Shown in pieces: positions 61,344 through 62,432 of a stretch of DNA of 64,000 nucleotides. The notes beneath the pieces are model-generated. The model ran no database searches and was not told the origin of the DNA. It was given only the letters and a program-made list of their open reading frames with translations. A program made the position numbers and the translations under genes. Each line of letters starts with the position of its first letter. Within the stretch, counting starts at the first letter, position 1. Source of the DNA: Escherichia coli (lineage in GTDB: Bacteria; Pseudomonadota; Gammaproteobacteria; Enterobacterales; Enterobacteriaceae); NCBI RefSeq assembly GCF_045037415.1, contig NZ_CP173438.1; one strand, given 5' to 3'.

Positions 61344-62432
61344 ATGATGAAGCGCAATATTCTGGCAGTGATCGTCCCTGCTCTGTTAGTAGCAGGTACT
61401 GCAAACGCTGCAGAAATCTATAACAAAGATGGCAACAAAGTAGATCTGTACGGTAAAGCTGTCGGTCTGCATTATTTCTCCAAGGGTAACGGTGAAGACA
61501 GTTACGGTGGCAATGGCGACATGACCTATGCCCGTCTTGGTTTTAAAGGGGAAACTCAAATCAATTCCGATCTGACCGGTTATGGTCAGTGGGAATATAA
61601 CTTCCAGGGTAACAACTCTGAAGGCGCTGACGCTCAAACTGGTAACAAAACGCGTCTGGCATTCGCGGGTCTTAAATACGCTGACGTTGGTTCTTTCGAT
61701 TACGGCCGTAACTACGGTGTGGTTTATGATGCACTGGGTTACACCGATATGCTGCCAGAATTTGGTGGTGATACTGCATACAGCGATGACTTCTTCGTTG
61801 GTCGTGTTGGCGGCGTTGCTACCTATCGTAACTCCAACTTCTTTGGTCTGGTTGATGGTCTGAACTTTGCTGTTCAGTACCTGGGTAAAAACGAGCGTGA
61901 CACTGCACGCCGCTCTAACGGCGACGGTGTTGGCGGTTCTATCAGCTACGAATACGAAGGCTTTGGTATCGTTGGTGCTTATGGTGCCGCTGACCGTACC
62001 AACCTGCAGGAAGAGTCTCCCCTTGGCAAAGGCAAAAAAGCTGAACAGTGGGCTACTGGTCTGAAGTATGACGCGAACAACATCTACCTGGCAGCGAACT
62101 ACGGTGAAACCCGTAACGCTACGCCGCTCACTAACAAATTTACAAACACCAGCGGCTTCGCCAACAAAACGCAAGACGTTCTGTTAGTTGCGCAATACCA
62201 GTTCGATTTCGGTCTGCGTCCGTCCATCGCTTACACTAAATCTAAAGCGAAAGACGTAGACGGTATCGGTGATGTTGATCTGGTGAACTACTTTGAAGTG
62301 GGCGCAACCTACTACTTCAACAAAAACATGTCCACCTATGTTGACTACATCATCAACCAGATCGATTCTGACAACAAGTTGGGCGTAGGTTCCGACGATA
62401 CCGTTGCTGTGGGTATCGTTTACCAGTTCTAA
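61344..62432 (+). CDS. ompF: Outer-membrane porin OmpF (non-K-12 allele)
   Basis: 362-aa [41 protein letters not shown]... ending ...VGIVYQF. Confidence 0.95.

Follow-up and report, generated by a model that had tools for sequence, protein, structure and literature searches.

We consider it very probable that the ompF gene in the window, by which we mean the whole stretch of 64,000 nucleotides of Escherichia coli DNA analysed here, is the clonal ompF of ST131 with one additional, private and conservative change (I240L), and that its differences from the K-12 gene are confined to the cell surface and came in three layers, altering the surface epitope of this porin and not its transport. The first layer would be an old and highly diverged cassette in loop L5, common to the three further alleles in the sample that are 98.3-98.6% identical and probably of the recombining loop-cassette type. 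The second would consist of two single-base changes, N30D and E284D, that are confined to ST131-type sequences among those examined, and the third would be the private I240L itself.

Identity and context of the gene

The family of the gene was assigned with the NCBIfam equivalog NF007446 ("porin OmpF") and Pfam PF00267, on the basis of a curated cut-off and a higher score than those of the PhoE and OmpC profiles. The open reading frame at 61344-62432 (Table 1) scored 788 bits against NF007446, for which the cut-off is 583, while the profiles of PhoE (474 bits) and OmpC (462 bits) each remained under their own cut-offs. All K-12 OmpF chains in the PDB share 98% identity with the encoded protein, and the gene order, in which asnS (ending at 60741) precedes ompF and aspC (starting at 62617) follows it, is the same in MG1655 and in ST131 genomes. 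The ribosome-binding region and 5' leader are identical to those of K-12, the first 39 codons hold no differences, and the C-terminus (...VYQF) is the same as in K-12, with the C-terminal Phe kept. We would thus expect a normal, functional ompF that encodes a trimeric, 16-stranded general diffusion porin, the predicted trimer resting on the near-identity to the crystallised protein.

Upstream of the gene, four substitutions distinguish the distal promoter stretch of the window, TTTTGTCACACAT, from that of K-12, TTTGGTTACATAT. They lie in a putative element (61132-61150) that we take to be the distal, high-affinity OmpR-binding box F1. The ST131 strain Ecol_AZ146 has the same sequence as the window across this stretch, and from 61151 to the ompF start codon the window is identical to K-12. 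Downstream, the 184-bp spacer between ompF and aspC has one difference from K-12. The probable terminator hairpin in this spacer (Table 1) was not listed by a simple consensus terminator scan, possibly because the A and T runs lengthen its stem.

Table 1. Features of the ompF region, the modelled loops of the protein, and the two other positions at which the window differs from Ecol_AZ146
Feature	Position	Strand	Description
C>A relative to Ecol_AZ146	31631		yccS N15K; one other genome has the variant
C>A relative to Ecol_AZ146	57968		2 nt before the pncB start codon; in no other genome
Four substitutions relative to K-12	61132, 61143, 61146, 61150 (61132..61150)	+	about 85-100 nt upstream of the ompF transcription start; from alignment
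ompF CDS, intact	61344..62432	+	ORF; 362-aa precursor plus stop; NCBIfam, K-12 identity and synteny
Signal peptide	61344..61409	+	codons 1-22, same as K-12; mature PDB chains (1opf, 2omf; 340 aa) align from residue 23
N30D	codon 52, 61497..61499	+	AAC>GAC; loop L1
L5 variable cassette	62007..62033	+	codons 222-230; QEESPLGKG, in K-12 QEAQPLGNG
A202E	precursor codon 224	+	GCT>GAG; loop L5
Q203S	precursor codon 225	+	CAA>TCT; loop L5
N207K	precursor codon 229	+	AAC>AAA; loop L5
I240L	codon 262, 62127..62129	+	ATC>CTC, single-base change at 62127; loop L6
E284D	codon 306, 62259..62261	+	GAA>GAC; tip of the L7 hairpin
Probable intrinsic terminator	62458..62487		A-run, hairpin (CAGGAC tttg GTCCTG) and T-run between ompF and aspC; read from the sequence
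Long connections L1 to L4	L1 47-57, L2 89-101, L3 121-158, L4 182-194 (precursor numbering)		DSSP on the model
Long connections L5 to L8	L5 218-231, L6 258-274, L7 306-308, L8 338-352 (precursor numbering)		DSSP on the model

Differences from the K-12 gene

Using PDB 3hw9 (full-length, 362 aa) as the K-12 reference for the protein and MG1655 b0929 as the reference for the DNA, we found 356 of 362 residues to be identical, which leaves exactly six amino-acid differences: N30D, A202E, Q203S, N207K, I240L and E284D in the numbering of the mature protein, which is used throughout, or N52D, A224E, Q225S, N229K, I262L and E306D when the precursor is numbered. The DNA shows 25 nucleotide differences, which fall into 16 synonymous and 6 non-synonymous codons. 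An earlier note on this DNA, written from the letters alone, had quoted four motifs in which this OmpF departs from K-12; the alignment places all six differences inside those motifs, and the K-12 versions that it gave agree with both 3hw9 and b0929. The same note called the changes charge-altering, and that description suits N30D, A202E and N207K (net -1) but not Q203S, I240L or E284D; three of the six are conservative, I240L and E284D among them. The resemblance to K-12 OmpF (b0929; 2OMF/1OPF/3HW9) extends to length, signal peptide, barrel, turns, loops L2, L3, L4 and L8, and synteny, whereas the six loop substitutions, the 16 synonymous codons and the four substitutions in the distal promoter set the two apart.

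Silent divergence is raised in one more short stretch of loop-coding DNA, at 62376-62399 (codons 345-352, in L8): 22 nt there contain four synonymous differences from K-12, and the protein is unchanged.

Location of the substitutions in surface loops

The long connections of OmpF are the extracellular ones. We delimited them by DSSP on an AlphaFold model made from 68 aligned OmpF sequences, and the loop boundaries used here are thus those of a medium-confidence model (mean pLDDT 71.6, pTM 0.71) rather than of crystal coordinates. Around the relevant loops pLDDT is 67-87, and L3 is poorly modelled. The model matches E. coli OmpF crystal structures with TM scores of 0.87/0.92 and an rmsd of 2.8 A over 340 columns, the best-scoring PDB entries are without exception E. 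coli OmpF, and DSSP shows the barrel strands. The assignment derived in this way agrees with the naming of the loops in PMC7730927 and bioRxiv 10.1101/2021.09.21.461324.

In the model, residue 30 is placed in L1, residues 202, 203 and 207 in L5, residue 240 in L6 (within a short beta-bridge inside that loop, not in coil) and residue 284 at the tip of the L7 hairpin; according to the same DSSP assignment, none of the six substitutions is in a barrel strand, a periplasmic turn or L3. The earlier prediction that the substitutions fall in external loops is therefore borne out for all six, in a model that superposes on the OmpF crystals. Extracellular loops make up 36% of the mature residues, and finding six of six changes in them has a p-value of 0.0024; when L3, which folds inwards, is left out, the loops make up 25% and the p-value is 0.00026. 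Even when the four loops are counted as four independent events, p is 0.018 with L3 or 0.004 without it. On the modelled boundaries, the concentration of substitutions in loops is greater than expected by chance.

A clonal ST131 allele with one private change

Over its 64 kb, the window differs from the ST131 strain Ecol_AZ146 by three bases and no indels. The non-K-12 background that had been proposed for it is thereby confirmed, and the background is ST131. Among 5,426 complete E. coli genomes, the best ompF matches are ST131 strains (O25b:H4, JJ1887, ZH063 and others), at 1088 of 1089 nt. The ST131 OmpF allele (WP_000977908.1; UniProt C9E713_ECOLX) has 361 of 362 residues, the same fraction of nucleotides as those best matches (1088/1089), the flanks and the chromosomal context in common with the window, and its sole difference is A>C at 62127, which gives I240L in the window. 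Since the window gene is a single base away from this allele, five of its six amino-acid differences from K-12 are, on this sequence comparison, those of the clonal ST131 allele, and only I240L is isolate-specific, a distinction that the earlier note had missed.

The ST131 allele is widespread: public records place WP_000977908.1 on at least 999 contigs, and about 560 of the 5,426 complete genomes carry an ST131-type allele at 99% identity or more. Most complete genomes carry a K-12-like allele, which is 97.8% identical to that of the window. We compared alleles using a spread sample of 13 distinct ompF alleles together with cluster representatives, and among these E. coli sequences D30 and D284 occur only in the ST131 type. 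Both the ST131 ompF allele and the variability of E. coli OmpF loops are already known and published, and the allele is not special.

The survey of complete genomes also brought up several ompF genes of other kinds. About 480 genomes (e.g. L017, NMBU_W05E18) have a divergent class of ompF, with about 90% DNA identity and 357 aa, in which L1, L4 and L5 are different and L6 is shortened; this class is far more divergent than ST131 is from K-12, and the window allele lies outside it. Several of the sampled complete genomes (L010, L016, L018; H1/H66, NZ_AP029163.1) have an inactivated ompF, by an internal stop (W61*), by frameshifts or by IS26, and the IS26 insertion is in an ST131-type allele. 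These genomes fit the reported dispensability of OmpF in resistant lineages.

The L5 cassette

The nucleotide differences are unevenly spread along the gene, with 9 of all 25 falling in the L5 segment, where they occupy 25 nt and comprise A202E, Q203S, N207K and three synonymous codon changes; in Q203S all three codon positions are changed. Such clustering arose in 0 of 200,000 permutations at the nucleotide level and has p=4.5e-4 at the codon level. By the Nei-Gojobori method, local dS in L5 relative to K-12 is 0.54, as opposed to 0.049 in barrel and turns. E202, S203 and K207 are also found together in three other alleles of 98.3-98.6% identity (09-02E, SF-088 and FDAARGOS_1296) out of the 13 sampled, and L1, L5 and L6 types occur in varied combinations among OmpF cluster representatives, some of which are truncated or frameshifted, as judged by inspection.

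Taken at face value, L5 looks like an old, recombining variable cassette rather than the product of recent point-mutation sweeps, a call that draws on one pairwise comparison and 13 sampled alleles. Import of the whole ompF gene by recombination was considered and rejected, because whole-gene dS (0.071) resembles that of asnS and aspC, L5 being the one segment that stands out.

OmpF has been described before as evolving in mosaic fashion, with five groups (bioRxiv 10.1101/2021.09.21.461324), and of the hypervariable regions defined in that work HVR4 corresponds to L5 and HVR5 to L6. The window allele resembles those porin mosaics in that variation is confined to extracellular loops, L5 behaves like a cassette that has diverged, and the types of L1, L5 and L6 appear to be exchanged among alleles. 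It is a mild case among them, having long, K-12-like L1 and L6 and differing mainly in the L5 cassette.

Selection, drift or old cassettes

The earlier note attributed the loop changes to diversifying selection by phages and colicins. We addressed this with pairwise Nei-Gojobori estimates of the window against K-12. Judging by synonymous divergence, ompF overall is at background divergence from K-12, since its dS is near those of asnS (0.044) and aspC (0.067). At the protein level, change has been faster in ompF than in the neighbouring genes: the whole-gene dN/dS, 0.135, is 4-6 times the values for asnS (0.021) and aspC (0.033). Within the gene, dN/dS is 0.21 in surface loops (dS 0.198), 0.33 in L5 alone and 0 in barrel and turns. 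In none of the ompF regions tested in this pairwise comparison with K-12 (gene, surface loops, L5, barrel and turns) does dN/dS rise above 1.

Could positive selection by phages, colicins, CDI or antibodies nevertheless have produced the loop changes, and altered susceptibility to these agents? All six changes are in surface loops, and five of them are in L5, L6 or L7. As far as the accounts of Traurig & Misra 1999 in PMC6499177 and PMC12032242 go, these are loops in which point substitutions in K-12 OmpF block binding of phage K20 while channel activity is unchanged. The K20-resistant mutants thus resemble the window allele in the loops affected and in leaving the channel-forming parts untouched, but they were selected in the laboratory and assayed for phage binding, according to the same accounts, whereas the changes in the window are natural, and the correspondence is at the level of the loop only. 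The raised dN/dS relative to the neighbouring genes also speaks for selection, as do the 9, 10 and 9 different residues that occupy positions 202, 203 and 207 among the 68 aligned OmpF sequences. Positive selection on E. coli ompF has moreover been reported by Chen 2006 and Petersen 2007, as these are cited in PMC5056734 and 10.1101/2021.09.21.461324.

Against such selection stand the dN/dS values, which are below 1 everywhere tested, and the comparison of the ST131 allele with that of 09-02E (98.6% identity), in which 3 codons differ non-synonymously and 11 synonymously. Among the 13 alleles, the ratio of non-synonymous to synonymous changes is 11:16 in surface loops and 6:26 in the rest of the gene, a contrast that is marginal (Fisher p=0.086). 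Half of the six changes are conservative, and selection on amino acids alone leaves the raised synonymous divergence of the loops unexplained. As for the individual agents, PMC5056734 calls the part played by OmpF in recognition by CdiA-EC536 unclear and says that it tolerates variants of OmpF, and our literature search found no residue-level support for a colicin link to the six OmpF residues. We therefore regard it as somewhat unlikely that positive selection of this kind made the changes and altered susceptibility. Of the earlier claim, the placement in loops stands, while the dN/dS values do not bear out the selection itself; diversifying selection by surface-binding agents would be plausible, L5, L6 and L7 being the loops involved in K20 binding.

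Another option, which we hold to be possible if only tentatively, is neutral drift under relaxed constraint, with the allele being a lineage marker and nothing else. This would agree with dN/dS below 1 in the loops and of zero in the barrel, with a whole-gene dS that matches the flanking genes, and with the conservative nature of I240L and E284D. It would also agree with the substituted residues being states that are present in other alleles or orthologues: all six positions vary among the 68 sequences, with I, L, F or V at position 240, E, A, D or N at 284, and mostly N at 30. Drift alone, however, leaves unexplained the extreme clustering and high dS of L5, as well as the apparent reassortment of L1, L5 and L6 cassettes. 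Since synonymous divergence is raised in the loops, recombining cassettes or relaxed constraint account for the pattern equally well, and the data agree with loop cassettes that have diversified over a long time or are under relaxed constraint. That N30D, E284D and/or I240L are adaptive escape from OmpF-dependent phages or bacteriocins appears improbable to us; if it were true, the escape changes would lower recognition of OmpF by these agents and so aid the ecological success of ST131 or of the isolate.

Consequences for the pore and for the cell surface

According to the list of lumen and constriction residues of OmpF in PMC7730927, the positions to be considered for permeation include K16, R42, K80, R82, R132, D113, E117 and R167, and all of these are the same in the window as in K-12. 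Since the barrel, the periplasmic turns and L3 are identical to those of K-12, pore properties should be unchanged.

ST131 being a multidrug-resistant clone, one may also consider whether its ompF allele is an adaptation of antibiotic permeability, all the more so as ompF alterations are enriched in carbapenemase producers (PMC6970295). The ompF alterations in that study are gene inactivation and promoter mutations in the OmpR box, and it was in ompC that changes in pore-lumen charge were scored. The gene in the window is intact, and none of its six changes touches L3 or a lumen residue. We accordingly rejected the permeability reading, which seems to us very improbable. ST131 does not stand apart from other sequence types in its level of OmpF protein (PMC7177473).

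The sampled allele of FDAARGOS_1296 (L007, 98.3% identical to that of the window) carries the charge reversals K16E and K80E at codons 38 and 102. These are at residues described as pore-lining and could affect permeation, unlike the changes in the window.

The surface loops tolerate substitutions, and they are also epitopes for OmpF-binding phages, for CdiA of E. coli 536 and for antibodies. Because the loops that tolerate change are also the epitopes, the consequence of the ST131 differences is likely to be an altered surface epitope, with the pore the same, rather than altered transport. Besides K20, OmpF is used by T2-like phages with Gp38 and by evolved lambda (PMC12032242, PMC6646904). 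The CdiA protein of E. coli 536 works through OmpC-OmpF heterotrimers, with a permissive requirement for OmpF (PMC5056734), and OmpF is also used by colicin N, it appears at the protein-lipid periphery (PMC3249085).

The private substitution and two further transversions

Of the 4,561 complete genomes with a match to the 61-mer centred on I240L, none contains it exactly, and a protein identical to that of the window (WP_404999083.1/XKM74082.1) is on record for one contig, of 5.3 Mb. Leu is found at position 240 in 14 of the 68 aligned OmpF sequences, the window included, and for that reason I240L should be tolerated, as far as can be judged from the alignment.

All three differences between the window and Ecol_AZ146 (I240L and the two others in Table 1) are transversions, and across about 5,400 complete genomes the sites concerned otherwise vary hardly or not at all. 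Changes of the types C>A and A>C (G:C>T:A and A:T>C:G) are the signature of 8-oxoguanine, as seen with mutM, mutY or mutT defects or with oxidative damage to the library. Because the changes are of this type, a mutator state or sequencing damage is a live alternative to selection for I240L, which could have arisen as an error in sequencing or assembly, or could belong to a larger set of mutations in a mutator isolate. For a clone that has been sequenced so heavily, moreover, a density of three private changes per 64 kb is high. On the other hand, a mutational spectrum cannot be established from three sites, orthologues often have Leu at this position, and GenBank and RefSeq hold the protein with I240L as an ordinary annotated product, so that on the whole we think an error or a mutator origin unlikely. 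Together with the other two private transversions, I240L is less a biological discovery than a small flag concerning the source genome, its quality or its mutational state.

Implications

OmpF-dependent phages that have been characterised on K-12 meet a different surface in L1, L5 and L7 on ST131, and predictions of host range for phage therapy or bacteriocins directed at ST131 should use the clone's own allele. Overall, the finding carries little weight beyond placing the window in ST131 and providing a clean example of the known variation of this porin, which is almost only in the surface loops.
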